64,000 nucleotides of DNA from Haliotis rubra. Its lineage: Eukaryota. Within the stretch, counting starts at the first letter, position 1. The number at the start of each line of letters is the position of its first letter. The notes under the pieces were generated by a model that was not told the DNA's origin, made no database searches, and saw only the letters and a program-made list of their open reading frames with translations. Made by a program: the position numbers and the translations under genes. The stretch is taken from the NCBI RefSeq assembly GCF_003918875.1, contig NW_025766525.1, positions 502,865 through 566,864 on the forward strand, given 5' to 3'. Shown piece after piece: positions 22,961 to 49,180 of the stretch.

Positions 22961-23208
22961 ACCTGCTTTGAGCAGTACTGGTATGCTGAATACTGGAGGC
23001 TCACTCATTCACTCACTCACTCACTCACTCACTCAGCTACTGTCTACCGTTGTCGTAACTCCTCGAACATAGTCTCTATGATCACTGCGTGAACTTAGCT
23101 CAATCACTTCTTGTCCCATGTTGTTAGATTTTATACAATGTTGTCCAGTGTTGTCAAGTCTTGTCCCATGTTGTCCAGTGTTGTCAAGTCTTGTCCCATG
23201 TTGTCCAG

Positions 23209-24839: not shown

Positions 24840-25170
24840 TTGCTTAGCCTGCCTAAACAGATGGGTCGGTAGAAACATGCAGGGTGGCAGCCTAAACAGA
24901 TGGGTTGGTAGAAACATGCAGGGTAGCTGCCTAAACAGATGGGTTGGTAGAAACATGCAGGGTAGCTGCCTAAACAGATGGGTTGGTAGAAACATGCAGG
25001 GTAGCTGCCTAAACAGATGGGTTGGTAGAAATATGAAGGGTAGCTGCCTAAACAGATGGGTAGGTAGAAACATGCAGGGTGGCAGCTTAAACAGATGGGT
25101 TGGTAGTAATATGAAGGGTAGCTGCCTGAACAGATGGGTTGGTAGAAACATGAAGGGTAGGCAGCTAGGA
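24840..25170. repeat. Tandem array in PARP4 intron 6, about 39 bp x 8 (cctaaacagatgggttggtagaaacatgcagggtagctg)
   Basis: Read directly. ORFs 24796..25209 and 24816..25151 are repeat artefacts. Confidence 0.85.
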
Positions 25171-25199
25171 TTATGGCACCTTAATTGGGTCGTATCGCC

Positions 25200-27600
25200 A
25201 AAGAATTGATGTGAGGTGCTACTAATGTGTATTAAAGTGCAAGAGAAGTACGTAGGAGGTTGCCTACTGGTGTATCCTGGGAGAAGTGCGTAGGAGGTTG
25301 CCTACTGGTGTATTGGGAGAAGTGTGTAGGAGGTTGCCTACTGGTGTATTTGGGAGAAGTGTGTAGGATGTTGCCTACTGATGTGTTTGGGAGAAGTATG
25401 TAGGAGGTTGCCTACTGGTGTATTGGGAGAAGTGTGTAGGAGGTTGCCTACTGGTGTGTTTGGGAGAAGTGTGTAGGAGGTTGCCTACTGGTGTGTTTGG
25501 GAGAAGTGTGTAGGATGTTGCCTACTGGTGTGTTTGGGAGAAGTGTGTAGGATGTTGCCTACTGGTGTGTTTGGGAGAAGTGAGTGAGAGGTTGCCTACT
25601 GATGTATTTGGGAGAAGTGTGTAGGAGGTTGCCTACTGGTGTGTTTGGGAGAAGTGAGTGAGGAGGTTGCCTACTGATGTATTTGGGAGAAGTGTGTAGG
25701 AGGTTGCCTACTGTGTGTGTTTGGGAGAAGTGAGTAGGAGGTTGCCTACTGATGTATTTGGGAGAAGTGTGTAGGAGGTTGCCTACTGGTGTGTTTGGGA
25801 GAAGTGCCCTACTGATGGTGAGAGGTTGCCTACTGATGTGTTTGGGAGAAGTGTGTAGGAGGTTGCCTACTGGTGTGTTTGGGAGAAGTGTGTAGGAGGT
25901 TGCCTGCTGGTGTATTTGGGAGAAGTGTGTAGGAGGTTGCCTACTGGTGTATTTGGGAGAAGTGTGTAGGAGGTTGCCTACTGGTGTGTTTGGGAGAAGT
26001 GAGTGAGAGGTTGCCTACTGATGTATTTGGGAGAAGTGTGTAGGAGGTTGCCTACTGGTGTGTTTGGGAGAAGTGAGTGAGAGGTTGCCTACTGATGTGT
26101 TTGGGAGAAGTATGTAGGAGGTTGCCTACTGGTGTGTTTGGGAGAAGTGTGTAGGAGGTTGCCTACTGGTGTATTTGGGAGAAGTGAGTAGGAGGTTGCC
26201 TGCTGGTGTATTTCGGAGAAGTATGTAGGGGCTTGCCTACTAGTATATTGGGAGAAGTGAGTAGGAGGTTGCCTGCTGTTGTATTTGGGAGAAGTGTGTA
26301 GGAGGTTGCCTACGGGTGTGTTTGGGAGAAGTGAGTGGGAGGTTGCCTACTGATGTATTTGGGAAAAGTGAGTGGGAGGTTGCCTACTGATGTATTTGGG
26401 AGAAGTATGTAGGGGGTTGCCTACTGGTGTATTGGGAGAAGTGTGTAGGAGGTTGCCTACTGGTGTATTTGGGAGAAGTATGTAGGAGGTTGCCTACTGG
26501 TGTATTTGGGAGAAGTATGTAGGAGGTTGCCTACTGGTGTATTTGGGAGAAGTGTGTAGGAGGTTGCCTATTGGTGTATTTGGGAGAAGTGTGTAGGAGG
26601 TTGCCTACTGGTGTATTTGGGAGAAGTGTGTAGGAGGTTGCCTACTGATGTATTTGGGAGAAGTGTGTAGGAGGTTGCCATTTGGGAGGAGAAGTGGAGG
26701 TTTACTGGGAGGGTGAAGTGTAGGAGGTTGCCTACTGGTGTGTTTGGGAGAAGTGAGTGGAGGTTGCCTACTGATGTGTTTGGGAGAAAGTATGTAGGAG
26801 GTTGCCCACTGGTGTGTTTGGGAGAAGTGTGTAGGAGGTTGCCTACTGGTGTGTTTGGGGGAGAAGTGTAGGATGTTGCCTACTGGTGTGTTTGGGAGAA
26901 GTGTGTAGGAGGTTGCCTACTGGTGTATTTGGGAGAAGTGTGTAGGAGGTTGCCCACTGGTGTGTTTGGGAGAAGTGTGTAGGAGGTTGCCTACTGGTGT
27001 GTTTGGGAGAAGTGAGTAGGAGGTTGCCTACTGGTGTATTTGGGAGAAGTGAGTGGGAGGTTGCCTACTGGTGTGTTTGGGAGAAGTGTGTAGGAGGTTG
27101 CCTACTGGTGTATTTGGGAGAAGTGTGTAGGAGGTTGCCTACTGGTGTGTTTGGGAGAAGTGAGTGAGAGGTTGCCTACTGATGTGTTTGGGAGAAGTAT
27201 GTAGGAGGTTGCCTACTGGTTACTGTGTTGTTTGGTAGAAGTGTGTAGGAGGTTGCCTATTGGTGTGTTTGGGAGAAGTTAGTAGGAGGTTGCCTACTGA
27301 TGTGTTTGGGAGAAGTGTGTAGGATGTTGCCTACTGATGTGTTTGGGAGAAGTGTGTAGGAGGTTGCCTACTGGTGTGTTTGGGAGAAGTGTGTAGGAGG
27401 TTGCCTACTGGTGTGTTTGGGAGAAGTATGTAGGAGGTTGCCTACTGGTGTGTTTGGGAGAAGTGAGTGAGAGGTTGCCTACTGATGTATTTGGGAGAAG
27501 TGTATAGGATGTTGCCTACTGGTGTGTTTGGGAGAAGTGTGTAGGAGGTTGCCTACTGGTGTGTTTGGGAGAAGTGAGTGAGAGGTTGCCTACTGATGTG
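25200..27600. repeat. Minisatellite in PARP4 intron 6, about 37 bp x about 65 (gggagaagtgtgtaggaggttgcctactggtgtgttt)
   Basis: Read directly. Confidence 0.9.
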
Positions 27601-27636
27601 TCCTGGAAGTATTCAGTCCTATTGTCCTTGCTGCAG

Positions 27637-27804
27637 CTGGAGAAGGCGGAGGCCATCTTGATGCAGATCCAGGACTGTTTAATGGCCAACAAGACAGACC
27701 AGCTCAACTCCCTAACGAGTGACTTCTACGAAGCCCTACCACACAGATGTCCGGACCAGGGTGTCAGCAAACAGTGGGTGGCCACTAAGCTTGACCTGTG
27801 TCAG
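27637..27804 (+). CDS. PARP4: PARP4 exon 7 (PARP regulatory helical region)
   Basis: The acceptor is ctgcag|CTG and the donor is CAG|gtgggt. LEKAEAILMQ...DFYEALPHRCPDQGVSKQWVATKLDLCQ matches human SKAEGILLL...EFYRLIPHKGTMPKEVNLGLLAKKADLCQ. Confidence 0.8.
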
Positions 27805-28095
27805 GTGGGTCAGTTCTCTTACAGCTGGAATATGTGTGTTAATGCAGTATTTTGTTTGTGTAATACTCTGCAACACTACAGCTATATGTCAGTATGTGTG
27901 TAATTAAGTGTGGACCACACATTCCAGTGATTGCTATGATCATTGAGTTGGGATATATTGACATTCAGCTTCTGTGTATTGGATGGTACATTTATGTAAT
28001 ACAGTAGACATACAGATACTTGGCACTGATGCCCAAACAATAACACTGGTTGGTCATTGCGTGGGAGTGCTCACATTAATCATGGACTGTTCCAG

Positions 28096-28256
28096 TTGAT
28101 CCGGGATATGATCTCCGTGAGCGAGGCCACTAATTGGTCAACTAGAAGCAGCACTGAGGCCAAATACCGAGCCCTGCGATGCAATATTGGCCATCTCGAG
28201 TCACATGACCCACAACACAAGTTGGTGAGAGACCTTGTGGAATCGTCCATCGAAGG
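28096..28256 (+). CDS. PARP4: PARP4 exon 8
   Basis: The acceptor is ttccag|TTG and the donor is GG|gtaagt, phase 2. LIRDMISVSEATNWS...AKYRALRCNIGHLESHD matches human LIRDMVNVCETNLSK...AKYRALRCKIEHVEQN. Confidence 0.85.
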
Positions 28257-28604
28257 GTAAGTTTCACAAGTCTTTATTGCATGTTTTTAACATTCTGTAA
28301 GTGTGTGCTGCAGTGTGCCTGGATGGAACTCTACATTCAGCCACTGAGGTAGCTGTTTTCACTGCATGTTAGATCAGCCTTGTCAGACACTGTAACAAGC
28401 TATTTGTCAGCTCAGCAATATGAAGGCGGTATTTGAACAGATCTGGCCCACAGTTCCTGAGGGAAACCTCCACTTTGAATGCATAGAAAATAGTCAGAAT
28501 CAGCAGCAAGCATTGGTAGAAAGACTATAGGACTGATACCTATCGTGATTTGGTTATTCGTTTTGTCTGATGTTCTCTTGAACAAAATGTCCTTGTTTTG
28601 TAAG

Positions 28605-28742
28605 CGATTTAAAGATGGAGATCAAAGCTGTGTACGAGGTGCAGCGACCCATCGAAGAAACCAACTTCCGTCATGATATTGACCCCAAACGACTCCTGTT
28701 CCATGCATCCAGGCCAGAAAACTTTGTCGGAATATTGTCACG
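28605..28742 (+). CDS. PARP4: PARP4 exon 9 (PARP catalytic)
   Basis: The acceptor is ttttgtaag|C and the donor is CG|gttggt. DLKMEIKAVYEVQRPIEETNFRHDIDPKRLLFHASRPENFVGILSR matches human VDVLQIFRVGRVNETTEFLSKLGNVRPLLHGSPVQNIVGILCR. Confidence 0.85.
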
Positions 28743-29177
28743 GTTGGTTTTGTTTGGTAATAATTGAAATTACTGTGGTATTCATGTGAAAAATATTGAA
28801 AGAGTTTTAGCTGTTATTGTGATAATTATATTTACCTGATGACTTGTTCATCTGTCTGTGTCGATCCCCGACCGCGTCATACCAAAAGACGTTAAAATAT
28901 GGTACTTGTTGGTCCCTGCCTGGTGCTCGGCATTAATGGGTACAACAAGGACTGGTCAGCTCGGAGTCAGTATAATGTGTCTGAGTGGGGTATCCATGCT
29001 TCACTGCGGCATGGTATTTCACTGGGCTAGCACTATAAAACCAGCTTAGGTCTGGGCTAGTACAAGCAGCCGCACATACACACACACACACACGCGCATG
29101 CACGTCGAAATATTCTCAAGCACGACGTTAAATCCAATTTCACCTCACCTCATCTGTCTGTTTGTTCCTGTTTTCAG

Positions 29178-29276
29178 AGGACTGTTGTTGCCGAAAGTTG
29201 TAGTGGAGAACTACGGGGGTCAGAGGTCAGACGCAGGGATGCTGGGAGGTGGACTCTACTTTGCCAGTGCTGCCAG
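29178..29276 (+). CDS. PARP4: PARP4 exon 10 (PARP catalytic)
   Basis: The acceptor is ttttcag|A and the donor is AG|gttagc. GLLLPKVVVENYGGQRSDAGMLGGGLYFASAA matches human GLLLPKVVEDRGVQRTDVGNLGSGIYFSDS. Confidence 0.85.
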
Positions 29277-29289
29277 GTTAGCTTGGGCT

Positions 29290-32040
29290 CATTGTGGTCA
29301 TTATTGAGTACTCACTGAAGAAGATAATGTTATGTAGTTAGCTCACCTGATGCAAGTGCCCAAGACAATGTTATTAAGTAGTCTCACCTGATGCAAGTGC
29401 CCAAAACAATGTTATCAAGTAGGCTCACCTGATGCAAGTGTCCAAAACAATGTTATCAAGTAGTCTCACCTGATGCAAGTGATGTTAGAGTGCCCAGGTG
29501 AAAGGTGCCCAAGACAATGTTATTAAGTAGTCTCACCTGGTGAAGAGTGCCCAAGTCAATGATATCAAGTAGTCTCACCTGGTGAAGAGTGCCCGAGACA
29601 ATGTTATCAAGTAGTCTCACCTGATGCAAGTGCCCGAGACAATGTTATTAAGTAGTCTCACCTGGTGAAGAGTGCCCAAAACAATGTTATCAAGTAGTCT
29701 CACCTGATGAAGTGCCCAAGAACAATGTTATTAAGTAGTCTCACCTGGTGAAGAGTGCCCAAAACAATGTTATCAAGTAGTCTCACCTGATGCAAGTGCC
29801 CAAGACAATGTTATTAAGTAGTCTCACCTGGTGAAGAGTGCCCAAAACAATGTTATCAAGTAGTCTCACCTGATGCAAGTGCCCAAGACAATGTTATTAA
29901 GTAGTCTCACCTGGTGAAGAGTGCCCAAAACAATGTTATCAAGTAGTCTCACCTGGTGAAAAGTGCCCAAAACAATGTTATCAAGTAGTCTCACCTGGTG
30001 AAGAGTGCCCAAAACAATGTTATCAAGTAGTCTCACCTGGTGAAAAGTGCCCAAAACAATGTTATCAAGTAGTCTCACCTGGTGCAAGTGCCCAAAACAA
30101 TGTTATCAAGTAGTCTCACCTGGTGAAAAGTGCCCAAAACAATGTTATCAAGTAGTCTCACCTGGTGAAAAGTGCCCAAGACAATGTTATCAAGTAGTCT
30201 CACCTGGTGAAAAGTGCCCAAAACAATGTTATCAAGTAGTGCAGAAAAGTGCCCAAAACAATGTTATCAAGTAGTCTCACCTGGTGAAAAGTGCCCAAAA
30301 CAATGTTATTAAGTAGTCTCACCTGGTGAAAAGTGCCCAAAACAATGTTATCAAGTAGTCTCACCTGGTGAAAAGTGCCCAAAACAATGTTATCAAGTAG
30401 TCTCACCTGGTGAAAAGTGCCCAAGACAATGTTATTCAAGTAGTCTCACCTGGTGAAAAGTGCCCAACATAATGTTATTAAGTAGTCTCACCTGGTGAAA
30501 GAGTGCCCAAGACAATGTTATCAAGTAGTCTCACCTGGTGAAAAGTGCCCAAAACAATGTTATCAAGTAGTCTCAAGTAGTCTCACAATGTTATCAAAGT
30601 CTCACCTGGTGCCCAAAACAATGTTATCAAGTAGTCTCACCTGGTGAAAAGTGCCCAAAACAATGTTATCAAGTAGTCTCACCTGGTGAAAAGTGCCCAA
30701 AACAATGTTATCAAGTAGTCTCACCTGGTGAAAAGTGCCCAAAACAATGTTATCAAGTAGTCTCACCTGGTGAAGAGTGTGCCAAAGACAATGTTATCAA
30801 GTAGTCTCACCTGGTGAAAAGTGCCCAAGATAATGTTATTAAGTAGTCTCACCTGGTGAAAAGTGCCCAAAACAATGTTATCAAGTAGTCTCACCTGGTG
30901 AAAAGTGCCCAAAACAATGTTATCAAGTAGTCTCACCTGGTGAAAAGTGCCCAAGACAATGTTATTAAGTAGTCTCACCTGGTGAAAAGTGCCCAAGATA
31001 ATGTTATCAAGTAGTCTCACCTGGTGAAAAGTGCCCAAAACAATGTTATCAAGTAGTCTCACCTGGTGAAAAGTGCCCAAGACAATGTTATCAAGTAGTC
31101 TCACCTGGTGAAAAGTGCCCAAAACAATGTTATCAAGTAGTCTCACCTGGTGAAAAGTGCCCAACATAATGTTATTAAGTAGTCTCACCTGGTGAAAAGT
31201 GCCCAACATAATGTTATTAAGTAGTCTCACCTGGTGAAAAGTGCCCAAAACAATGTTATCAAGTAGTCTCACCTGGTGAAGAGTGCCCAAAACAATGTTA
31301 TCAAGTAGTCTCACCTGGTGAAAAGTGCCCAAAACAATGTTATCAAGTAGTCTCACCTGGTGAAAAGTGCCCAAAACAATGTTATCAAGTAGTCTCACCT
31401 GGTGAAAAGTGCCCAAAACAATGTTATCAAGTAGTCTCACCTGATGCAAGTGCCCAAGACAATGTTATTAAGTAGTCTCACCTGTGCAAGTGCCCAAGAC
31501 AATGTTATTAAGTAGTCTCACCTGGTGAAGAGTGCCCAAAACAATGTTATCAAGTAGGTCTCACCTGATGAAAAGTGCCCAAAACAATGTTATTAAGTAG
31601 TCTCACCTGGTAAAAAGTGCCCAAAACAATGTCATCAAGTAGTCTCACCTGGTGAAGAGTGCCCAAACAATGTTATCAAGTAGTCTCACCTGGTGAAAAG
31701 TGCCCAAACAATGTTATCAAGTAGTCTCACCTGGTGAAAAGTGCCCAAAACAATGTTATCAAGTAGTCTCACCTGGTGAAAAGTGCCCAACATAATGTTA
31801 TTAAGTAGTCTCACCTGGTGAAAAGTGCCCAACATAATGTTATTAAGTAGTCTCACCTGTGAAAAGTGCCCAACAAATGTTACAAGTCAAGTAGTCTCAC
31901 CTGGTGAAAAGTGCCCAACATAATGTTATTAAGTAGTCTCACCTGTGAAAAGTGCCCAACATAATGTTATTAAGTAGTCTCACCTGTGAAAAGTGCCCAA
32001 CATAATGTTATTAAGTAGTCTCACCTGTGAAAAGTGCCCA
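29290..32040. repeat. Minisatellite in PARP4 intron 10, about 42 bp x about 65 (gtagtctcacctggtgaaaagtgcccaaaacaatgttatcaa)
   Basis: Read directly. The unit resembles the sequence just upstream of the exon 11 acceptor (aatgttatga...atttagctcacctggctctgttgcag). ORFs 29866-31449 are artefacts. Confidence 0.9.
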
Positions 32041-32112
32041 ACATAATGTTATGATTTATTAGTCACCGAAATGTTAATGACATGGTATTTAGCTCACCTG
32101 GCTCTGTTGCAG

Positions 32113-32296
32113 CACCAGTGCCCAGTACTCCCGTGAGAGCAAGACAAAGGGCACACGGCTGATGCTGGTGGCTGATGTTGCTCTTGGCCAGTGTAAGGAT
32201 CTGTTTAACCATGACAGGACCCTCAAGTGCCCCCCAGAGGGCTATCACAGTGTACATGGTGTCAAGAACTCTCCCAACACACCATCAGACTTCATG
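32113..32296 (+). CDS. PARP4: PARP4 exon 11 (PARP catalytic)
   Basis: The acceptor is tgttgcag|C and the donor is ATG|gtagga. TSAQYSRESKTKGTRLMLVADVALGQCKDLFNHDRTLKCPPEGYHSVHGVKNSPNTPSDF matches human TSIKYSHPGETDGTRLLLICDVALGKCMDLHEKDFSLTEAPPGYDSVHGVSQTASVTTDF. Confidence 0.85.
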
Positions 32297-32299
32297 GTA

Positions 32300-33286
32300 G
32301 GATGCTTTGACTGCCAGGCTGATGTTTGAGTATGTTTTGATTGCAAGGCTGATGTTTGAGTATGTCTGACTGCCAGGCTGATGTTTGAGTATGTCTGACT
32401 GCCAGGCTGATGTTTGAGTATGTTTGACTGCCAGGCTGATGTTTGAGTATGTTTGACTGCCAGGCTAATTGTTTAGTATGTTTGACAGCCAGGCTGATGT
32501 TTGAGTATGTCTGACTGCCAGGCTGATGTTTGAGTATGTCTGACTGCCAGGCTGATGTTTGAGTATGTCTGACTGCCAGGCTGATGTTTGAGTATGTTTG
32601 ACAGCCAGGCTGATGTTTGAGTATGTCTGACTGCCAGGCTGATGTTTGAGTATGTCTGACTGCCAGGCTGATGCTTTAGTATGTTTGACTGCCAGGCTGA
32701 TGTTTGAGTATGTTTGACAGCCAGGCTGATGTTTGAGTATGTCTGACTGCCAGGCTGATGTTTTAGTATGTTTGACAGCCAGGCTGATGTTTGAGTATGT
32801 TTGACTGCCAGGCTGATGTTTGAGTATGTTTGACTGCCAGGCTGATGTTTGAGTATGTCTGACTGCCAGGCTGATGTTTGAGTATGTCTGACTGCCAGGC
32901 TGATGCTTTAGTATGTTTGACTGCCAGGCTGATGTTTGAGTATGTTTGACAGCCAGGCTGATGTTTGAGTATGTCTAACTGCCAGGCTGATGCTTTAGTA
33001 TGTTTGACAGCCAGGCTGATGTTTGAGTATGTTAGACTGCTAGGCTGACGTTTTAGTATGTTTGACAGGCTGATGTTTGACTGTTTGACTGCCAGGCTGA
33101 TTTTTGAGATGTTTGACTGCCAGGCTGATGTTTGAGTATGTTTGACTGCCAGGCTGATGTTTGTGTATGTTTGACTGTCAGGCTGATGTTTGAGTGTCAG
33201 GCTGATGTTTGACTGTTTGACTGCTAGGCTAATGTTTGAGTATGTTACTGTGCCAGGCTGATGTGTGATGATGTTTTTACTTCCAG
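32300..33286. repeat. Minisatellite in PARP4 intron 11, about 29 bp x about 34 (ctgatgtttgagtatgtctgactgccagg), abutting exon 12
   Basis: Each unit contains ccag|gctgatg, which is identical to the real acceptor plus the first 7 nt of exon 12 (ccag|GCTGATGag). Confidence 0.9.
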
Positions 33287-33443
33287 GCTGATGAGTATGC
33301 TGTGTACTGCGTCAAGCAGCAGCGTCTGAGATACCTGGTGGAGTTTAGCCTGCAGGGGGACCAAGTTCGGGATGTAATTCTAGCAGACATCCAGCAAGAC
33401 TTGGAGCAGACGGCACTGGCTGACATGTTGCAGGACAACTTGG
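33287..33443 (+). CDS. PARP4: PARP4 exon 12
   Basis: The acceptor is tacttccag|GCTGATG and the donor is G|gtatgt, phase 1. ADEYAVYCVKQQRLRYLVEFSLQGDQVRD matches human DDEFVVYKTNQVKMKYIIKFSMPGDQIKD. Confidence 0.8.
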
Positions 33444-33696
33444 GTATGTAGCGTCCACGTTTCAGTTGTGCCAAACACCAGTGAACACACAAGTGTTTTG
33501 GCCTACAACTATATAACCGTCTCTCCATCTGTCCATCCATCCATTCCTGTTCACTCCTGTCCTTGTCATTCGTCATTCTTGTGCAATATTCACTATATTC
33601 CCTGTATTTAGTGTGTTCACTATATTCCCTGTATTAAGTGTGTTCACTATATTCCCTGTATTAAGTGTGTTCACTATATTCCTCCCCCTACGGCAG

Positions 33697-33830
33697 ACTT
33701 GTCGGACGTGCTGGGCATTGAGGACCCTCTGTCTAAGGTGGAGGCTGGTCTGGTTTCCGAGGGCAACAAGATGGCTGTGGAGCTGCAAGGAGTTCACATC
33801 CGCTCCAAACTGGTGGACCTGGCTGCTCAG
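33697..33830 (+). CDS. PARP4: PARP4 exon 13 (start of VIT domain)
   Basis: The acceptor is ctacggcag|AC and the donor is CAG|gtggga. ...GVHIRSKLVDLAAQ matches human EDVHIKGRIIDTVAQ. Confidence 0.75.
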
Positions 33831-34314
33831 GTGGGATTCATTGATTATTTGCAAGAAGTCAATAAGTCAATAAGTCACGTACTGCTGACCATCCCTTACT
33901 GGTGACACCTACAGTGTGCTGCTTGACACTGCATGAATGTAGAGCTTGTTCCAGTGGCCAGTTGATATTTCCTTCATAAACCAGAAGACAGCATGAATAT
34001 TACATGTTAGCACATTGTCATCTGCAACATTATGTTGTATAATGTGTATACATTTTTCTTAGGTTTCAGGAAGAATTGCTTTTTCTCATATACTACCCAG
34101 ACTAAATCCTATCACTTCAGGTGAATTAACTGGAGATCAGAAACTGGAACAATGTTAGTGTCAAACTAAATAATGACTTAAAATGTTGACAATTGTGTTT
34201 GTTATTGTGGCATTTCTCAAACATGAGAAAAACTTCTCTAACCTTATTCCAAGGTGCAGTAAGATATTTGTAAATGACTGACCCTGACTGATGTACCGTG
34301 CAACACATCTGCAG

Positions 34315-34539
34315 GTGATAGTTCTCCAGGAGTACTACAACACCAGTGACACTGCTGTGGAGGCCAAATATGTGTTTCCTCTGGACGACATGGCTGCTGT
34401 GTGTGGGTTCGAAGCATTTATCAATGACAAGCACATCATAGGCGAGGTCAAAGAGAAGGAGCAGGCTCACAAGGAGTACAAGAAGGCTGTCAGTGAAGGT
34501 CATGGAGCTTATCTGATGGACAGAGATGAAGAGACACCG
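34315..34539 (+). CDS. PARP4: PARP4 exon 14 (VIT domain)
   Basis: The acceptor is tctgcag|GTG and the donor is CCG|gtaagt. VIVLQEYYNTSDTAVEAKYVFPLDDMAAVCGFEAFINDKHIIGEVKEKEQAHKEYKKAVSEGHGAYLM matches human VIVFQTYTNKSHVPIEAKYIFPLDDKAAVCGFEAFINGKHIVGEIKEKEEAQQEYLEAVTQGHGAYLM. Confidence 0.9.
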
Positions 34540-34605
34540 GTAAGTTTGGCTGAAGGTCAACAGTGAAGGTCATGGAGCTTATCTGATTGACAGAGATGAA
34601 GACAC

Positions 34606-35172
34606 CATTCTTTTCCCACAGAGGTTACTCCTGTCATATCTTCCCACATGTAACCTCTGTTCTAATAATGCCCTTTCATGGTGTGAGCTGCTTCAAGACT
34701 CCTCGGATTGGAGACAATCAGATTTAGTTGTGCAATCAGCAACGCTTGTTTCAAAAGTGATCATTCGCAAGGCCCTCGGTAATTTCCGTGATACTTCGAG
34801 AAAACTAAACCTTCTTCCCGCGCCGATGCGCTAAACGCTTCCTCTAGACAGAACTCAGTCATGTTATGGCGGATCAGTGGATCTCCATCGCCTCGCTGAC
34901 AACGGACAAGCTAGCCATTAAACGCCTTGTGTGTAACATCAACACAAGTCCCCGCAGATGGGGATATTTGTGGCTTCACATTTGCTTGTGTTAGTCAAGT
35001 TGAATCTAAGTCGATGTAACACCTGTTCTGATTGGATAGAAAGAAGGGAGATAATTCATTTTGCGATCTTTGCCGCTTAGGGATTTTAAGAGAACCGGGA
35101 AATATGGCCGTATTAGAACAGAGGTTACGTGTAGGAAGATATGACAGGAGTAACCTCTGTGGGAAGAGAATG
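34606..35172. mobile_element. MITE (about 567 bp, TIRs of about 55 bp), copy 1, in PARP4 intron 14
   Basis: The left TIR is cattcttttcccacagaggttactcctgtcatatcttcccacatgtaacctctgttctaata. Its reverse complement lies at 35118-35172 (tattagaacagaggttacgtgtaggaagatatgacaggagtaacctctgtgggaagagaatga). Confidence 0.7.
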
Positions 35173-35809
35173 ATGAAGAGACACTGGTAAGTTTGGCTGA
35201 AGGTCAACAGTGAAGGTCGTGGACATTATCTCATGGACAGAGATGAAGAGACACTGGTAAGTTTGGCTGAAGGTCAACAGTGAAGGTCATGGAGCTTATC
35301 TCATGGACAGAGATGAAGAGACACTGGTAAGTTTGGCTGAAGGTCAACAGTGAAGGTCATGGAGCTTATCTGATGGACAGAGATGAAGAGACACCGGTAA
35401 GTTTGGCTGAAGGTCAACAGTGAAGGTCATGGAGCTTATCTGATGGACAGAGATGAAGAGACACCGGTAAGTTTGGCTGAAGGTCAACAGTGAAGGTCAT
35501 GGAGCTTATCTGATGGACAGAAGATGAAGAGACACACCTGTAAGTTTGGCTCAAGGTCAACAGTGAAGGTCATGGAGCTTATCTGATGGACAGAGATGAA
35601 GAGACACTGGTAAGTTTGGCTGAAGGTCAACAGTGAAGGTCATGGAGCTTATCTCATGGACAGATTAAGAGACACTGGTAAGTTTGGCTGAAGGTCAACA
35701 GTGAAGGTCATGGAGCTTATCTGATGGACAGAGATGAAGAGACACCGGTAAGTTTGGCTGAAGGTCAGTAGTGATGCTCATGGAGCTTATCTGATGGACA
35801 GAGATGAAG

Positions 35810-36377
35810 CATTCTCTTCCCACAGAGGTTACTCCTGTCATATCTTCCCACGTAACCTCTGTTCTAATAATGGCCCTTTCATGGTGTGAAGCGTTCAAGA
35901 CTTCGTGATTGGAGACAATCAGATTTAGTTGTGCAATCAGCGGCGTTGTTTCAAAAGTGATCATTTGCAAGGCCTCGGTAATTTCCGTATACTCGAGAAA
36001 ACTAAACCTCTTCCCCTGCGCGCGATGCGCATAGCGTTTCCTCTAGACAGAACTCAGTCATGTTATGGCCCGGATCAGTGGCGTCTCCATCGCCCTCGTT
36101 GACAACGGACAAGCTAGCCATTAAAGCGTCTTGTGTGTAACATCAACACAAGTCCCCGGCAGATGGGGGATATTTGTGGCTTCACATTTGCTTGTGTTAG
36201 TCAAGTTGAATCTAAGTCGATGTAACACCTGTTCTGATTGGATAGAAAGAAGGGAGATAATTGCATTTTTGCGATCTTTTGCGCTAGGGATTTTAAGAGA
36301 ACGGGAAATATGGTCAGATTAGAACAGAGGTTACGTGAGGAAGATATGACAGGAGTAACCTCTGTGGGAAGAGAATG
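35810..36377. mobile_element. MITE copy 2 (same family as 34606-35172)
   Basis: It is near-identical to copy 1 and sits in the same donor-repeat context. This implies duplication of a MITE-plus-array block. Confidence 0.7.
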
Positions 36378-36679
36378 AGATGAAGAAGAGACACTGGTAA
36401 GTTTGGCTGAAGGTCAACAGTGAAGGTCATGGAGCTTATCTCATGGACAGAGATGAAGAGACATTGGTAAGTTTGGCTGAAGGTCAACAGTGAAGGTCAT
36501 GGAGCTTATCTCATGGACAGAGATGAAGAGACACTGGTAAGTTTGGCTGAAGGTCAACAGTGAAGGTCATGGAGCTTATCTCATGGACAGAGATGAAGAG
36601 AGAATGGTAAGTTCGGTCATCAGTGAAGGTTATGGGGTGTGTTGTAAGAGAAGGTCATTTATCCATTCTGATGGACAGA

Positions 36680-37200
36680 ATTTTAGGATTGCAGTAAGTT
36701 AGAGGTGAAGGTCTGACAGGGATGTTGTCAGGGAAGATTGTGGATCTTGTCTGATACAGTAAGTTAGAGGTGAAGGTCTGACAGGGATGTTGTCAGGGAA
36801 GATAGTGGCTCTTGTCTGATACAGCAAGTTAGAGGTGAAGGTCTGACAGGGATGTTGTCAGGGAAGATTGTGGATCTTGTCTGATACAGTAAGTTAGAGG
36901 TGAAGGTCTGACAGGGATGTTGTCAGGGAAGATTGTGGATCTTGTCTGATACAGTAAGTTAGAGGTGAAGGTCTGACAGGGATGTTGTCAGGGAAGATTG
37001 TGGATCTTGTCTGATACAGTAAGTTAGAGGTGAAGGTCTGACAGGGATGTTGTCAGGGAAGATAGTGGCTCTTGTCTGATACAGCAAGTTAGAGGTGAAG
37101 GTCTGACAGGGATGTTGTCAGGGAAGATTGTGGATCTTGTCTGATACAGTAAGTTAGAGGTAAGGTCTGACAGGGATGTTGTCAGGGAAGATTGTGGATC
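36680..37200. repeat. Tandem array, about 62 bp x 8 (cagtaagttagaggtgaaggtctgacagggatgttgtcagggaagattgtggatcttgtctgata)
   Basis: Read directly. Confidence 0.85.
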
Positions 37201-37319
37201 TTGTCTGATACAGTAGAGAATAACGTCTTGATTGAAAGAGAACAACAGGGCTCCCACGGGTCAGGGAAAAGTCAGAACCAGGCATATTGATATTGCTGTC
37301 ATCACTAAGAACCAGTTTC

Positions 37320-37376
37320 TGTGAGCATGTTTAATGTTTCAGGATGTTTAATGTTTCAGCATGTTTAATGTTTCAG
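37320..37376 (+). repeat. Triplicated exon 15 acceptor motif (atgtttaatgtttcag x3) immediately upstream of exon 15
   Basis: The sequence reads gcatgtttaatgtttcag gatgtttaatgtttcag catgtttaatgtttcag|GATGTG. Confidence 0.85.
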
Positions 37377-37541
37377 GATGTGTTCACAGTGAGTGTTGGC
37401 AACCTCCCACCCCATGCATCTGTCCTCATCAAGATTACTTACGTAGCTGAACTACAGGTTGAAGCAGAACTTATAAGTTTCCGGTTACCAGGCAGTGTGG
37501 CACCATGGAAGCAAGACTCTGCAGCTGATGAAATCACTCAG
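37377..37541 (+). CDS. PARP4: PARP4 exon 15 (VIT domain)
   Basis: The acceptor is gtttcag|GAT and the donor is CAG|gtattt. DVFTVSVGNLPPHASVLIKITYVAEL...VAPWKQD matches human DVFTVSVGNLPPKAKVLIKITYITEL...VAPWQQD. Confidence 0.9.
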
Positions 37542-37749
37542 GTATTTATTGATCTGAACTATTCTGACACTAAAACTATGTGCTTGTGAAATAATTGCAA
37601 TTGTAGTGAAACTATGGAATTTTCTTTACATTTGATTTTTCAAATGATGTCTAAGAAATTATAAGTTTTGTTTTATATAGATGTTCTTATATATATAATT
37701 TCTTGTGTTGCTAGTTTGAAGTTTTGTCAGTTGTTGCTAATGGTTACAG

Positions 37750-37863
37750 ACTGAGCTGGAAACACACAAGGTTCAATCAGGGGACACCACTGTGCAGGTT
37801 GCCGTGGAGATGCCATTTGACATTCGCTCAATACAGTGTCCTTCACACAAAGTCCGAATCAAG
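37750..37863 (+). CDS. PARP4: PARP4 exon 16
   Basis: The acceptor is ggttacag|ACT and the donor is AAG|gtgaga. ...VAVEMPFDIRSIQCPSHKVRIK aligns to human ...TMSIEMPYVIEFIFSDTHELKQK. Confidence 0.7.
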
Positions 37864-37985
37864 GTGAGAAGCACTCAAGCATTTTCAGTTTTTTTGTGAT
37901 TTCAAATATTGTGTTGTCATGTAGTGCTGCCATGTTGTACTGTCCTGTTGCTGCTGGTCTACATTGTCTACTCATGTTCTTCCAG

Positions 37986-38125
37986 AGAACTGCTGCCAAG
38001 GCTGTAGTGCAGATGTGTCATGGACAGTCAATACAAGATGGCTTCCAGCTCCTGATTGGGCTGGCTGAGATACACGTGCCACGGATGTGGGTAGAGAGAC
38101 ATCCAGAGAGAGAGACATGCATCAG
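37986..38125 (+). CDS. PARP4: PARP4 exon 17 (end of VIT domain), with a phase problem at its 3' end
   Basis: The acceptor is cttccag|AGA. RTAAKAVVQMCHGQS...GLAEIHVPRMWVERHPERETCI matches human RTDCKAVISTMEGSS...GLSAAYLPRMWVEKHPEKESE. The only GT donor (CATCAG|gtaggc) leaves phase 2, which is incompatible with exon 18 (phase 0). The difference is one AG unit in a (AG)5 run. Confidence 0.6.
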
Positions 38126-40010
38126 GTAGGCTGGCAGAGGAATGATGGTCTAGTTTGTGGGTAGAGAGACATCCAGAGAGAGAGAGACATGCATCAGGCA
38201 GGCAGGCAGAGGAATGATGGTCTAGTTTGTGGGTGGAGAGACATCCAGACAGAAAGAGACATGCATCAGGTAGGCTGGCAGAGGAATGATGGTCTGGTTT
38301 GTGGGTGGAGAGACATCCAGAGAGAGACATGCATCAGGTAGGCAGGCAGAGGAATGATGGTCTAGTTTGTGGGTGGAGAGACATCCAGAGAGAGAGAGAC
38401 ATGCATCAGGTAGGCAGGCAGAGGAATGATGGTCTAGTTTGTGGGTAGAGAGACATCCAGAGAGAGAGAGACATGCATCAGGCAGGCAGGCAGAGGAATG
38501 ATGGTCTAGTTTGTGGGTGGAGAGACATCCAGACAGAAAGAGACATGCATCAGGTAGGCAGGCAGAGGAATGATGGTCTAGTTTGTGGGTGGAGAGACAT
38601 CCAGAGAAAGACATGCATCAGGTAGGCAGGCAGAGGAATGATGGTCTAGTTTGTTGGTGGAGAGAGACCAGAGAGAGAGAGAGACATGTATCAGGTAGGC
38701 AGGCAGAGGAATGATGGTCTAGTTTGTGGGTAGAGAGACATCCAGAGAGAGACATGCATCAGGTAGGCAGGCAGAGGAATGATGGTCTAGTTTGTGGGTG
38801 GAGAGACATCCAGGAGAGACACATCAGGTAGGCAGGCAGAGAGATGGTCATGCATCCAGAGACATGCATCAGGTAGGCAGGCAGAGGAATGATGGTCTAG
38901 TTTGTGGGTGGAGAGACATCCAGAGAGACATGATCATAGGCTGGCAGAGGAATGATGGTCTTGTTTGTGGGTAGAGGACATCCAGGCATCAGAGGAATGA
39001 TGGTCTAGTTTGTGGGTGGAGAGACATCCAGAGAGAGACATGCATCAGGTAGGCAGGCAGAGGAATGATGGTCTAGTTTGTGGGTAGAGAGACATCCAGA
39101 GAGAGAGAGACATGCATCAGGTAGGCAGGCAGAGGAATGATGGTCTAGTTTGTGGGTGGAGAGACATCCAGAGAGAGACATGTATCAGGTAGGCAGGCAG
39201 AGGAATGATGGTCTAGTTTGTGGGTGGAGAGACATCCAGAGAGAGACATGTATCAGGTAGGCAGGCAGAGGAATGATGGTCTAGTTTGTGGGTAGAGAGA
39301 CATCCAGAGAAAGACATGTATCAGGTAGGCTGGCAGAGAAATGATGGTCTGGTTTGTGGGTGGAGAGACATCCAGAGAAAGACATGCATCAGGTAGGCAG
39401 GCAGAGGAATGATGGTCTAGTTTGTGGGTGGAGAGACATCCAGAGAGAGAGAGACATGTATCAGGTAGGCAGGCAGAGGAATGATGGTCTAGTTTGTGGG
39501 TAGAGAGACATCCAGAGAGAGACATGCATCAGGTAGGCAGGCAGAGGAATGATGGTCTAGTTTGTGGGTGGAGAGACATCCAGAGAGAGACATGCATCAG
39601 GTAGGCAGGCAGAGGAATGATGGTCTAGTTTGTGGGTGGAGAGACATCCAGAGAGAGACATGCATCAGGTAGGCAGGCAGAGGAATGATGGTCTAGTTTG
39701 TGGGTGGAGAGACATCCAGAGAAAGACATGTATCAGGTAGGCAGGCAGAGGAATGATGGTCTAGTTTGTGGGTAGAGAGACATCCAGAGAGAGAGAGACA
39801 TGCATCAGGTAGGCAGGCAGAGGAATGATGGTCTAGTTTGTGGGTGGAGAGACATCCAGAGAGAGACATGTATCAGGTAGGCAGGCAGAGGAATGATGGT
39901 CTAGTTTGTGGGTGGAGAGACATCCAGAGAGAGAGACATGCATCAGGTAGGCAGGCAGAGGAATGATGGTCTAGTTTGTGGGTAGAGAGACATCCACAGA
40001 GAGAGACATG
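38050..40010. repeat. Exon 17 donor-derived minisatellite in intron 17, about 68-76 bp x about 27
   Basis: The unit gtgggtggagagacatccagagagagacatgcatcag|gtaggcaggcagaggaatgatggtctagttt reproduces the exon 17 3' end (WVERHPERETCI) plus the GT donor. The (ag)n length varies between copies. ORFs 38028-38614 and 39253-39525 are artefacts. Confidence 0.9.
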
Positions 40011-40150
40011 CATCAGGCAGGGGATGCCGCATGCGACATGTTATATGTGTGTTTGGATCGTTGTTGTTGTTTGAGTAACATCATGGTGTGCCAGGTTCAT
40101 GTTGGGTATTCCCTCCACAATCATTCTTTGTTCTTCATTCTATATTCTAG

Positions 40151-40337
40151 GCCTGCATGTTGACATTTTACCCTGAGTTTGAGGCTGACGAGGACGATGA
40201 TGTGGAAATTGTGTTCGTCCTTGACCTCTCCAATTCCATGTCTGGTGATGCAGTGCTGGATGCCAAGAAGCTGTTGATGATGTTGCTGCACAACTTGCCA
40301 CCGCGCTCTACCTTCAACGTCCTCTGCTTCGGAACAG
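40151..40337 (+). CDS. PARP4: PARP4 exon 18 (vWA domain start)
   Basis: The acceptor is tattctag|GCC and the donor is ACAG|gtcagt, phase 1. ACMLTFYPEF...VEIVFVLDLSNSMSGDAVLDAKKLLMMLL...FNVLCFGTG matches human ACMLVFQPDL...EVIICLDCSSSMEGVTFLQAKQIALHAL...VNIIQFGTG. Confidence 0.85.
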
Positions 40338-40469
40338 GTCAGTGTCATCCACAGAGTGTGGTCCTAAGTATGTGATTTGACAATGAATTGTTGATGGGGA
40401 ATGATAAGACATATAAAGGAAATAATTAGTAAACTTATTCAATGACATAATACTTAGATGATGGGGGGA

Positions 40470-43140
40470 TGTTGTGGATTGGTAACGTCATGACACAAGG
40501 TTGTGGGAAGGTTGTAGATTGGTAACATCATGACACAGCGTTGTGGGAAGGTTGTAGATTGGTAATGTCATGACACAATGTTGTGGGAAAGTTGTAGGTT
40601 AGTAACATCATGACACAACGTTGTGGGAAGGTTGTAGATTGGTAACGTCATGACACAACGCTGTGGGAAGGTTGTAGATTGGTAATGTCATGGTACAATG
40701 TTGTGGGAAGGTTGTAGATTGGTAACATCATGACAACATTGTGGGAAGGTTGTCGATTGGTAATGTCATGACACAAGGTTGTGGGAAGGTTGTAGATTGG
40801 AAACGTCATGACAACGTTGTGGGAAGGTTGTAGATTGGTAACGTCATGACAGCAATTTTGTGGGAAGGTTGTAGATTAGTAACGTCATGACACAAGGTTG
40901 TGGGAAGGTTGTAGATTGGTAACATGATGACACAGCGTTGTGGGAAGGTTGTAGATTGGTAATATCATGACACAGTGTTGTGGGAAGATTGTAGATTGGT
41001 AACGTCATGACACAACGTTGTGGGAAGGTTGTAGATTGGTAACATCATGACACAGCATTGTGGGAAGGTTGTAGATTGGTAACGTCATGACACAACGTTG
41101 TGGGAAGGTTGTAGATTGGTAATGTCATGACACAATGTTGTGGGAAGGTTGTAGATTGGTAACATCATGACACAATGTTGTGGGAAGGTTTTAGATTGGT
41201 AACGTCATGACACAATGTTGTGGGAAGGTTGTAGATTTGTAATGTCATGACACAACATTGTGGGCAGGTTATAGATTGGTAACGTCATGACACAATGTTG
41301 TGGGGATGTTGTAGATTAGTAACATCATGACAACGTTGTGGGAAGGTTGTAGATTGGTAACGTCATGAAACAACGTTGTGGGAAGGTTATAGATTGGTAA
41401 TGTCATGAGAAAAGGTTGTGAAAAGGTTATAGATTGGTAACGTCATGACACAATGTTGTGGGAAGGTTGCAGATTGGTAATGTCATGACACAATGTTGTG
41501 GGGATTTTGTAGATTGGTAACGTCATGACACAATGTTGTGGGGATGTTGTAGATAAGTAACATCATGACACAGCGTTGTGGGAAGGTTGTAGATTGGTAA
41601 TGTCATGACACAACGTTGTGGGAAGGTTATAGATTGGTAATGTCATGAGAAAAGGTTGTGAAAAGGTTATAGATTGGTAACGTCATGAGAAAAGGTTGTG
41701 GGAAGGTTGTAGATTGGTAATGTCATGACACAGCGTTGAGGGAAGGTTGTAGATTGGTAACGTCATGAGAAAAGGTTGTGGGAAGGTTATAGATTGGTAA
41801 TGTCATGACACAGCGTTGTGGGAAGGTTATAGATTGGTTACGTCATGAGAAAAGGTTGTGGGAAGGTTGTAGATTGGTAATGTCATGACACAGCGTTGTG
41901 GGAAGGTTGTAGATTGGTAACGTCATGACAAAGGTTGTGGGAAGGTTATAGATTGGTAATGTCATGACACAGCGTTGTGGGAAGGTTATAGATTGGTAAC
42001 GTCATGAGAAAAGGTTGTGGGAAGGTTGTAGATTGGTAATGTCATGACACAGCGTTGTGGGGATGTTGTGGATTGGTAACGTCATGACACAATGTTGTGG
42101 GGATGTTGTAGATTGGTAACGTCATGACACAAGGTTGTGGGAAGGTTGTAGATTGGTAACATCATGACACAGCGTTGTGGGAAGGTTGTAGATTGGTAAT
42201 GTCATGACAGCGTTGTGGGAAGGTTGTAGATTGGTAATGTCATGACACAGGCGTTGTGGGAAGGTTGTAGATTGGTAATGTCATGACACAGCGTTGTGGG
42301 AAGGTTGTAGATGTCATGACACAGCGTTGTGGGAAGGTTGTAGGTTGGTAATGTCATGACACAGCATTGTGGGAAGGTTGTAGATTGGTAACATCATGAC
42401 ACAACGCTGTGGGAAGGTTGTAGATTGGTAATGTCATGACACAGCGTTGTGGGAAGGTTGTAGATTGGTAATGTCATGACACAGCGTTGTGGGAAGGTTA
42501 TAGATGTCATGACACAGCGTTGTGGGAAGGTTATAGATTGGTAATGTCATGACACAGCGTTGTGGGAAGGTTGTAGGTTGGTAATGTCATGACACAGCGT
42601 TGTGGGAAGGTTGTAGATGTCATGACACAGCGTTGTGGGAAGGTTGTAGGTTGGTAATGTCATGACACAGCGTTGTGGGAAGGTTGTAGATTGGTAATGT
42701 CATGACACAACGTTGTGGGAAGGTTATAGATTGGTAATGTCATGACACAGCGTTGTGGGAAGGTTGTAGATGTCATGACACAGCGTTGTGGGAAGGTTGT
42801 AGATGTCATGAGACAGCGTTGTGGGAAGGTTGTAGATGTCATGACACAGCGTTGTGGGAAGGTTGTAGATGTCATGACACAGCGTTGTGGGAAGGTTGTA
42901 GGTTGGTTATGTCATGACACAGCGTTGTGGGAAGGTTGTAGATTGGTAATGTCATGACACAACGTTGTGGGAAGGTTATAGATTGGTAATGTCATGACAC
43001 AGCGTTGTGGGAAGGTTGTAGATGTCATGACACAGCATTGTGGGAAGGTTGTAGATGTCATGACACAGCGTTGTGGGAAGGTTGTAGATGTCATGACACA
43101 GCGTTGTGGGAAGGTTGTAGATGTCATGACACAGCGTTGT
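40470..43140. repeat. Minisatellite in PARP4 intron 18, about 39 bp x about 68 (gttgtgggaaggttgtagattggtaacgtcatgacacaa)
   Basis: Read directly. ORFs 42660-43208 are artefacts. Confidence 0.9.
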
Positions 43141-43459
43141 GGCAAATTGCCAAATAAACATTGAAGTGAATTTCTGCTTTGTTTCTTACTACTGGGAAAA
43201 CAATTCAACTATTAACATAAATAGAACGTTAAGTCAACGTAAAATACGTTAGTGTCAAATACCTTAACGTAAATGGGAGCCCATCAGAATAACGTTGTAA
43301 CAGCGAAAGCATAATGTGGTGACTTCATTTTGTAGAATAGACGAATATGGGTCTGAATGATGACATAAAGGAAGACACCCTAGTTTGTGAACTATGATAA
43401 ATTGGGAGTAATATTTGAGTAAGTTATGTTCCTGTACATGGTGTTTGGTGTGTTGCCAG

Positions 43460-47459: not shown

Positions 47460-48700
47460 AAACACTGTCAGTGTTGTGGGGTGGCTTATCTCACCACTGT
47501 GGGATGGCTTATCTCACTTCTGTGGGGTGGCTTATCTCATCACTGTGGGGTGGCTTATTTCACCACTGTGGGGTGGCTTATTTCACCACTGTGGGGTGGC
47601 TTATCTCACCACTGTGGGGTGGCTTATCTCACTACCGTGGGACGGCTTATCTCACCACAGTATGATGGCTTATCTCACCACTGTAGGGTGGCTTATCTCA
47701 CCACTGTGGGGGAATTATCTCTTTTCCGTTGGGGGCTTATCTCACCACTATTGGGTGGGGTATCTCACCACTGTGGGGTGGCTTGTCTCACCTCTGTGTG
47801 TGTGTGTGGGGGGGCTTGGGGGCCTTATCTCACCACTGTAGGATGGCTTATCTCATCACTGTAGGGTGGCTTATCTCACCACTGTGGGGTGGCTTATCTC
47901 ACTTCTGTGGAGTAGCTTATCCCATCACTGTGGGGTGGCTTATCTCACCACTGTGGGGTGGCTTATCTCACCACTGTGGGGTGGCTTATCTCACTTCTGT
48001 GGAGTAGCTTATCTCATCACTGTGGGGTGGCTTATCTCATCACTGTAGGCTGGCTTATCTCACTTCTGTTGGGGGCTTATCTCACCACTATTGGGTGGGG
48101 TATCTCACCGCTGTGGGGTGGCTTGTTTCATGACTGTGGGGCTGCTTATCTCACCAATCTGGGGTGGCTTATCCCATCACTGTGGGGTGGCTTATCTCAC
48201 CACTGTGGGGGTTTATCTCACTTCTGTGGAGTAGCTTATCTCATCACTGTGGGGTGGCTTATCTCACCACTGTTGGGGGCTTATCTCACTTCTGTTGGGG
48301 GCTTATCTCACCACTATTGGGTGGGGTATCTCACCACTGTGGGGTGGCTTGTCTCACCACAGGGTGTGTGTGTGGGGGGGCCTTATCTCACCACTGAGGG
48401 GTGGCTTATCTCACCACTGTGGGGGGCTTATCTCACCACTGTGGGGTGGCTTATCTCACCACTGTGGGGTGGCTTATCTCACCACTGTGGGATGGCTTGT
48501 CTCATCACTGTGGGTGGCTTATCTCATCACTGCGGGTGGCGTATCTCACCACTATTGCTTGGCTTATCTCACCACTATTGCTTGGCTTATCTCACCACTG
48601 TGGGGTGGCTTATCTTACCACTGTGGGGTGGCTTGTCTCACCACTGTGGGGTGGTGTATCTCATCACTGTGGCTTATGTCGACACTTTTGGGTGGCTTAT
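47460..48700. repeat. Minisatellite in PARP4 intron 21, about 23 bp x about 54 (cactgtggggtggcttatctcac)
   Basis: Read directly. ORFs 47454-48747 are artefacts. Confidence 0.9.
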
Positions 48701-48916
48701 CTGACCCCTGGCTGATCACTGTGGCTCGATTCCCCATGGGAAGATAATGTTTGAGGCGGGTTCCTAAAGCCCTTGCTAACAGGACCCAAGTTAAAACAGT
48801 ACATTGATTGGATAATACATTGTTTAATGGATTAAAGTTATTGATGTTGCAAAAACCATACATGTAGAAATGTTCCTATTTTCCCTGATGAATAAACTGA
48901 AGCCTTCCATCAACAG

Positions 48917-49087: not shown

Positions 49088-49122
49088 GTGGGTATATATG
49101 GGTAGTAGATGTGTTAACGCTT

Positions 49123-49125
<3 letters not shown>

Positions 49126-49180
<55 letters not shown>
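49126..49180. repeat. (GAT)n microsatellite inside the 114-bp PARP4 intron 22
   Basis: gatgatgat... repeats about 18 times. Confidence 0.95.

Follow-up and report, generated by a model that had tools for sequence, protein, structure and literature searches.

The 64-kb window analysed here (64,000 nucleotides of Haliotis rubra contig NW_025766525.1; all positions refer to this whole stretch) contains on its + strand an orthologue of PARP4, the gene encoding the vault poly(ADP-ribose) polymerase. Intron 11 of this gene is occupied almost completely by a 29-bp tandem repeat, the unit of which carries a copy of the junction between the intron and exon 12, and this array is the subject of the present analysis. 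The domain order of PARP4 (BRCT - PARP catalytic - VIT - vWA) was found in the host gene. The BRCT domain is encoded by exons 1-2 (Pfam, 2.4e-10), the end of the PARP catalytic domain by 32113-32296 and 33287-33443 (Pfam PF00644, 4.8e-14), and the VIT domain spans the join of exons 14 and 15 (Pfam, 1.7e-34). Human PARP4 is the best solved relative (PDB) of the catalytic region encoded by exons 11 and 12 (E ~1e-22) and also the best PDB match of further 3' exons, which correspond to its residues 853-1191. The host-gene product is about equally distant from fish-like PARP4 and human PARP4. No Rfam family was found within the 64-kb window.

The exons were mapped with translated orthologous contigs (tblastn) and human PARP4, while the N-terminal exons were assigned by eye and with the Pfam BRCT domain; a composite open reading frame (ORF) query of the N-terminal exons gave no match in PDB. 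Five exons lie before the exon at 24304, so the numbers 11 and 12 used in an earlier note on this DNA are right. Exon 11 (32113-32296, + strand; ...GYHSVHGVKNSPNTPSDFM) ends at the donor ATG/gtagga, the slash marking the splice junction here and below, and was delimited by translation, PF00644, the human PARP4 structures and tblastn with the orthologous loci. Exon 12 (33287-33443, + strand) starts with ADEYAVYCVKQQRLRYLVEF, and its first 13-14 nt, GCTGATGAGTATG(C), are probably the template of the exon-derived part of the repeat unit. The spliced product of exons 11 and 12, ...SDFM/ADEYAVYCVKQQRLRYLVEF... (ADEYAVY...), aligns without gaps to human ...TDFE/DDEFVVYKTNQVKMKYIIKF... (DDEFVVY...). 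Wrong annotation of exon 12 had been raised as a possible objection, and the boundary is sound by this ungapped alignment and by the presence of an intron at the same codon in three orthologous loci.

Intron 11 (32297-33286, 990 nt) consists of a 21-nt donor piece and 34 in-register units of about 29 bp, which were delimited by cutting the intron at every GCT[GA]A[TC]. The donor piece (32297-32317, + strand) comprises the donor stub GTAGGATGC and a first partial unit, TTTGACTGCCAG, and only about 9 nt of the intron are non-repeat. A homogeneous core of 25 units, one of 30 nt and 24 of exactly 29 nt, extends over 32318-33043 (+ strand) and has the consensus GCTGATGTTTGAGTATGT[T/C]TGACTGCCAG by Tandem Repeats Finder (TRF) and parsing. 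Parsing then gives eight degenerate 3' units of 19-29 nt (33044-33256, + strand), all ending in AG, with their indels located in the internal ATGTTTGA subrepeat. The terminal unit (33257-33286, + strand), GCTGATGTGTGATGATGTTTTTACTTCCAG, was identified by parsing and acceptor scoring and contains the authentic acceptor and the best pyrimidine tract (TTTTTACTTCC). By TRF the 29-bp array spans 32306-33195 (30.9 copies, 91% matches), beyond which degenerate rows extend to 33275.

Each piece of the intron terminates in AG followed by GCT[G/A]A, and the authentic ccag/GCTGATG is the 35th copy of this motif. The earlier count of about 34 acceptor mimics preceding the authentic acceptor is borne out exactly, since 34 AG/GCT sites were counted, comprising 28 CCAG, 2 CTAG, 2 TCAG, 1 CAAG and 1 ACAG. 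The array also runs up to the real acceptor as had been described: its last unit ends in the authentic AG, and exon 12 keeps the register. The 11-mer CCAGGCTGATG occurs 27 times in the 64 kb, with 0.03 copies expected; all of these lie within 32314-33293, and the last one is the true junction. The 22-mer unit core has no copy in the window outside the intron 11 array, which argues for a local origin, and a dispersed repeat family was therefore rejected. Exact-ORF look-ups gave no same-species or allelic copies of the locus.

The unit was described earlier as a copy of the acceptor and the first codons of exon 12, identical to the true 3' splice site. The junction copy was recovered, and ccag/GCTGATG is the same in the unit and at the real site, but the unit reads tgccag where the true site reads ttccag, and identity beyond position +7 of the exon requires an indel. 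Exact in-register identity on the exon side amounts to 7 nt (GCTGATG). The unit then has four extra nucleotides, after which TGAGTATG matches exon 12 again, so that its layout is ...TTTGACTGCCAG/GCTGATG[TTTG]AGTATGT. The exon-derived part of the unit is short, with 7 nt certain and 13-14 nt probable. The full unit aligned to the first 27 nt of exon 12 scores 11.0, a value reached by none of 1944 other exonic 27-mers (maximum 9.0) and by 22 of 20000 shuffles; the similarity between unit and junction therefore exceeds chance. The donor region of exon 11 shows no similarity to the intron 11 unit (score 4.0).

The age of the intron and the direction of copying were addressed with orthologues. A homologue search returned six ORF fragments with 46-64% identity, all ending in ...[DE]FE followed by V (GTN), which represent exon 11 continued into its intron. 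The contigs of these fragments represent three independent orthologous loci (L001, L003 and L006), which are compact fish-like genes. A phase-0 intron after ...DFE was found at the same codon in all three loci and in all six fragment ORFs. The orthologous introns are 73 nt (L001), 98 nt (L003) and 378 nt (L006) long, and no tandem repeats were found in the introns of these three loci between exons 11 and 12. The shared position and the repeat-free orthologous introns indicate that the intron is old and the array lineage-specific.

Exon 12 starts with GATGAGGAGTACGTG in L001, GATGACGAGTATGTG in L003, GATGATGAGTATGTT in L006 and GCTGATGAGTATGCT in the window. In the three orthologous loci the exon begins GA[TC]GAGTATGT, and the amino acids D[DE]EY are encoded by GATGA[GCT]GAGTA[CT]GT, which is conserved coding sequence; the exon is therefore the source and the repeat the copy. 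The unit keeps AGTATGT as in two of the orthologues, and present exon 12 has AGTATGC (Val to Ala). This suggests that the duplication predates the substitution of AGTATGT by AGTATGC, although a single base is weak evidence. Codon 1 of exon 12 is GCT (Ala) in the window and in all units, and Asp (GAT) in the orthologues and in human; the change to GCT either came before the array or spread by conversion.

Among the 24 central units, identity is 93-96% and is highest for units eight positions apart (0.961 vs ~0.93 at other lags); an 8-unit (232-bp) higher-order duplication is evident, in which 32609-32753 matches 32841-32985. A homogeneous centre with degenerate edges and a higher-order repeat is the classical signature of slippage or unequal exchange with exclusion of the boundaries, and boundary exclusion from homogenisation has likewise been described for junction-spanning minisatellites of globin genes (PMC3087553).

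Use of the mimics would interrupt the reading frame. TGA is present in all three frames of the unit, and in the exon 11 frame 24 of 33 mimics lead to ADV followed by a stop, the rest reaching a stop in 20 codons or fewer; the 34th mimic (33257) likewise reads ADV and stop. Leakage to the mimics would thus be unproductive and the transcripts probably targeted to nonsense-mediated decay (NMD). Acceptors were scored with a home-made position weight matrix (PWM) of approximate frequencies. By this rough matrix the authentic acceptor scores 4.4 and has 12 pyrimidines in 18 positions with a longest run of 5, whereas the mimics score 0.4 on average (maximum 4.1), with a mean of 10.1 pyrimidines in 18 positions and a mean longest run of 3.1. 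For the 17 real acceptors that were mapped in the host gene the mean PWM score is 2.5, with negative values among them. The authentic site outscores every other copy, though the margin is not wide. The unit that contains it departs from the consensus by G-to-T changes, which create TTTTTACTTCC. The mimics contain a branch-point-like CTGAC or TTGAC just 7 nt from their own AG; by textbook knowledge, AGs at such a short distance from a branch point are not used. An exon-derived CTGAT, a candidate branch point by the yUnAy consensus, precedes the authentic AG by about 25 nt. The authentic acceptor probably wins through its exon context and its better pyrimidine tract.

These observations are probably explained by a neutral junction minisatellite of the acceptor type in PARP4. 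The array is most likely a tolerated by-product of tandem duplication without a function. The founding event would have been a short tandem duplication over the boundary of intron 11 and exon 12, covering approximately 12 nt at the end of the intron and 13-14 nt at the start of the exon, with 4 nt gained by the unit later. A duplicate lying upstream of an intact acceptor and exon is removable as intron. Slippage and unequal exchange, in part of several units at a time, would then have brought the array to 34 copies, and an old short intron was thereby enlarged to 990 nt and lost nearly all of its unique sequence. The authentic acceptor would still be in use for two reasons: no other copy adjoins the complete exon, and none has as good a pyrimidine tract.

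Arrays of this structure are known as mirages. Junction-spanning minisatellites were reported in the globin genes BflGb6 and BflGb9 by Ebner et al. (PMC3087553), which traces the term to lancelet Adh3 (Canestro et al. 2002, as cited there), with units of 10-72 bp. Further mirages were reported in TnC and PGBD5 by Pavelitz et al. 2013 (PMC3902484). In the globin mirages both boundaries can be duplicated, many units keep the AG or GT, splicing was regular by reverse transcription PCR (RT-PCR), and haplotypes differ in copy number (6 vs 3) (PMC3087553). The intron 11 repeat is a head-to-tail array of minisatellite-size units by TRF and parsing, it is contiguous with the authentic junction as its terminal copy, and its unit comprises intronic and exonic sequence of one boundary together with the splice signal. 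By these three structural features it belongs to the published class, and it reveals no new mechanism. Mirages likewise involve the 5' or the 3' boundary, keep their AG or GT signals, have unhomogenised edges and occur several times in a genome or gene. BflGb6 is of the same subtype, consisting of the 3' end of an intron together with the 5' portion of an exon. Its units are 150-160 bp long and present in 3-6 copies, whereas the intron 11 unit measures 29 bp, with about 7-14 nt of exon, and is present in 34 copies; the length lies inside the Adh3 range. Unlike the described mirages, the intron 11 array has taken the place of virtually all of its intron. It is somewhat unusual that the unit holds so little exon sequence, that the copies are so many, that next to nothing else is left of the intron and that four such arrays cluster in one gene.

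Several human variable number tandem repeats (VNTRs) have their first monomer over a donor boundary, namely those in F7 intervening sequence (IVS) 7 (37 bp), IFI6/6-16 intron 2, CBS IVS13, LMNB2 and PDGF (PMC1557585). Their pseudo-sites are functional yet silent, as the most upstream site is chosen by 5'->3' scanning (PMC1557585). The intron 11 array resembles them in that a splice site is reiterated in the intron as pseudo-sites that would normally be silent, with position relative to the exon probably being decisive. It differs in being on the acceptor side, where the copy that is probably in use is the most downstream one, whereas the human VNTRs are on the donor side and use the most upstream copy; a different selection rule, such as exon context or the pyrimidine tract, must therefore apply. 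Ordinary intronic minisatellites share with it the period of 10-100 bp, the G/T-rich strand bias, higher-order repeats and degenerate edges, but the intron 11 unit includes exon sequence and a splice site in register with the junction.

Several points weigh against an origin by duplication of the junction. The exon-derived part of the unit is short, being 7 nt if exact and 13-14 nt only with the 4-nt indel. When the exon alone is aligned locally and position is ignored, the match is marginal (score 8.5, equalled by 9 of 409 non-adjacent pairs), so that significance rests on register and contiguity. An alternative decomposition could start from a 19-nt proto-unit, GCTGATG plus TTTGACTGCCAG, which then underwent a 10-nt internal duplication of ATGTTTGA[G/C]T; agreement at AGTATG(T) would in that case be a coincidence and the exon part 7 nt long, with the junction origin retained. 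Short variant units of 19 and 27 nt show that the internal subrepeat does slip. Nearly no unique ancestral intron sequence is left, which requires an extra, undocumented deletion. The PWM is approximate and home-made, and two mimics score near the real site. In addition, the copy number of such repeats may be inaccurate in the assembly.

At least three further junction-spanning arrays were identified in the host gene, two on donors (A8 and A11) and one on an acceptor (A10). The donor-derived arrays mentioned in the earlier note are well supported, as A8 scores 34 and A11 33.5 on the exon side, where non-adjacent pairs reach at most 9.5. Array A8 (34494-36613, + strand; TRF, tblastn and alignment) has a 70-bp unit composed of the last ~40 nt of exon 14 (…GHGAYLMDRDEET) and the donor CTG/GTAAGT. 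It is divided into the segments 34494-34602, 35172-35809 and 36385-36613, with 13 copies of GGTAAGTT, by two copies of a ~570-bp terminal inverted repeat (TIR) element at 34603-35175 and ~35812-36375. This element resembles a miniature inverted-repeat transposable element (MITE), with 70-nt terminal inverted repeats that are 91% complementary. Both copies sit at the same position of the 70-bp unit, which indicates that units and element were duplicated again as one block, at a period of about 1.2 kb. The adjacent array A9 (65 bp, 36692-37215) shares GTAAGTT, GTGAAGGTC and CTT.TCTGAT with the A8 unit and looks like a diverged descendant of it; the donor junction of exon 14 may therefore be the source of most of intron 14.

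The acceptor-type array A10 (37327-37381, + strand; TRF and alignment) contains 3.2 copies of a 17-bp unit, ATGTTTAATGTTTCAG/G; it repeats TTTCAG/GATGT and reaches 5 nt (GATGT) into exon 15. The donor-type array A11 (38086-40021, + strand; TRF, tblastn and alignment) contains 27.6 copies of 68 bp, which repeat the last ~38 nt of exon 17 (…MWVERHPERETCIR) and the donor CAG/GTAGGC. The end of exon 17 is its first copy, and it holds 19 copies of CATCAGG[TC]AGGC. A8 and A11 reiterate a donor downstream and are exact structural analogues of the human donor VNTRs of the F7 type, whereas the intron 11 array (A6) reiterates an acceptor.

From arrays of this kind it had been proposed that splice junctions act as seeds for tandem duplication, and they could be mechanistic hot spots, for example through transcription- or splicing-coupled DNA damage. 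Such a role is favoured by the finding that 4 of about 10-12 intronic arrays (A6, A8, A10 and A11) span a junction, that the array at 23109-23208 ends exactly at an acceptor and others end 14-60 nt from one, and that the sense strand shows strong G-richness in 8 of 12 arrays, a hint of transcription-linked asymmetry. However, several large arrays are internal (A1, A12 and A13), and the mirage literature calls the mechanism unclear and names no junction-specific process (PMC3087553). A null model that places unit-length duplications with uniform probability and discards only those lying wholly in exons predicts that, with short unique introns, 2.6 of 10 arrays would cross a junction, against 4 seen (P(>=4)=0.23); this model is crude, and ancestral lengths were estimated. 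Most host-gene introns lacking arrays measure 122-484 nt and one reaches about 1.6 kb; introns with an array retain 20-1600 nt of unique sequence, in most cases about 20-600 nt. A junction-spanning duplicate carries its own splice site and is thereby removable by splicing, which a purely exonic duplicate is not. Survivorship is sufficient to explain the junction-spanning arrays, so a seeding role is not needed, and hot spots are unlikely. We give the same low credence to the broader proposition that junctions preferentially generate duplications and are true seeds of intron growth or, in a milder form, that the decoys serve regulated unproductive splicing of PARP4.

On the sense strand, A2, A3, A6, A8, A9, A10, A11 and A12 (24849-43142) have a strongly positive GC skew (+0.33 to +0.66). 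None of the 12 arrays is strongly negative, and unique intron and exon sequence have values of +0.08 and +0.06, respectively. The skew might come from transcription-linked mutational asymmetry or from selection against pyrimidine-rich, acceptor-like sense repeats.

Other arrays near junctions were also considered. The 30-bp array at 23109-23208 (10-bp sub-period), which stops at the exon 4 acceptor, contains three exact copies of CCATGTTGTCCAG; it was not counted as a mirage, as its reiterated acceptors lack a detectable exon part. The 42-bp array of intron 10 (29326-32112, ~60 copies) runs on in degenerate form to the exon 11 acceptor. Its unit shares colinear TCTCACCTGG...AGTGCCCA..AC with the exon 11 junction, as if an acceptor segment had been deleted, but the match to a decayed acceptor mirage is not significant (score 8.0, equalled by 18 of 409 non-adjacent pairs). 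A decayed exon 7 mirage in the 37-bp array of intron 6 (GGAGAAG...GGAGG) is likewise not significant (score 7.0, equalled by 52 of 409), and both arrays are left unclassified. In orthologous locus L003, a 20-bp repeat of 1.9 copies (AGAACCCAGTGAGTCTGCCA) at 1167-1204 lies across the exon 12 donor (...gaacccag/gtgagc) and may be a two-copy junction duplication outside the lineage of the window.

A purely intronic origin of the intron 11 array, with the likeness to exon 12 due to chance or to overwriting of the first codons with repeat sequence by gene conversion or unequal exchange, is slightly less probable than hot spots. Codon 1 of exon 12 agrees with every unit in being GCT where the orthologues and human have Asp, and the exon-only similarity is modest. 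On the other hand, the orthologues conserve GATGAGTATG as coding sequence, so the exon had the motif beforehand, and the 7-nt exact in-register identity, with 8 further nt after one indel, greatly exceeds chance. A conversion confined to the GCT codon agrees with duplication of the junction and is no substitute for it.

It is very unlikely that the array is functional, its decoy acceptors and donors serving as a splicing decoy, a timer or a regulated NMD switch on PARP4 output. The array does offer 34 decoy acceptors and 29 donor-like GTATGT sites, and every unit combines a GTATGT resembling a 5' splice site, a yUnAy-like CTGAC or TTGAC, and CAG/G. The AG is kept in all 34 units and the use of a mimic yields a premature stop. 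Selection retaining the AG was nevertheless rejected as not significant: because only 9 of 29 columns vary in the array core, the chance that both AG columns are invariant is ~0.47. The orthologues have no array, the same gene has like arrays of unrelated sequence on donors and deep in introns, and published mirages left splicing unaltered in RT-PCR (PMC3087553, PMC3902484).

The Rogers model and later work on internal gene duplication attribute intron gain to tandem duplication of a sequence containing AG/GT (summarised in PMC3087553), and the present case is alike in that splice signals are reiterated and the material between the used signals becomes intron. Creation of intron 11 itself in this manner would fit an intron that is nearly all repeat with GT...AG signals in each unit, but it is refuted for intron 11 by the repeat-free intron at the exact codon and phase in the three orthologous loci, which shows that a pre-existing conserved intron was enlarged and none created.

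Outside the junction arrays, a cluster of + strand ORFs at 56925-61644 with a reverse transcriptase domain (RVT_1, 1.3e-12, ORF 58474-59364) was identified as a retroelement, which belongs to the window's GC-richer 3' part. At 49126-49180, starting ~35 nt past the donor of the ~48917-49092 exon, there is a perfect (GAT)18 microsatellite. Large arrays of 69-bp and 49-bp units (8277-10509 and 630-963, respectively) precede the PARP4 start (~18565) and are not part of the mapped gene. Long ORFs, of 130-248 aa, are contained wholly in minisatellite arrays at 30763-31449 (- strand), 47958-48704 (+ strand) and 38028-38614 (- strand); these are repeat-generated frames and not genes, and could mislead ORF-based annotation.

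This PARP4 gene offers a clean and extreme example of a conserved short intron, 73-378 nt long in orthologues, that was inflated tenfold and in which repeats of the intron's own 3' splice junction took the place of its sequence. At least four junction arrays are present in the one gene, on donors and acceptors. For annotation such arrays are a trap, as gene predictors may choose a mimic site and assemblers may mis-size the array. The acceptor-side arrays mirror the F7 intron-7 system, which served to show 5'->3' scanning for donors. With 34 near-identical acceptors before the real one, intron 11 is a natural substrate for the question of how the spliceosome picks the last copy.

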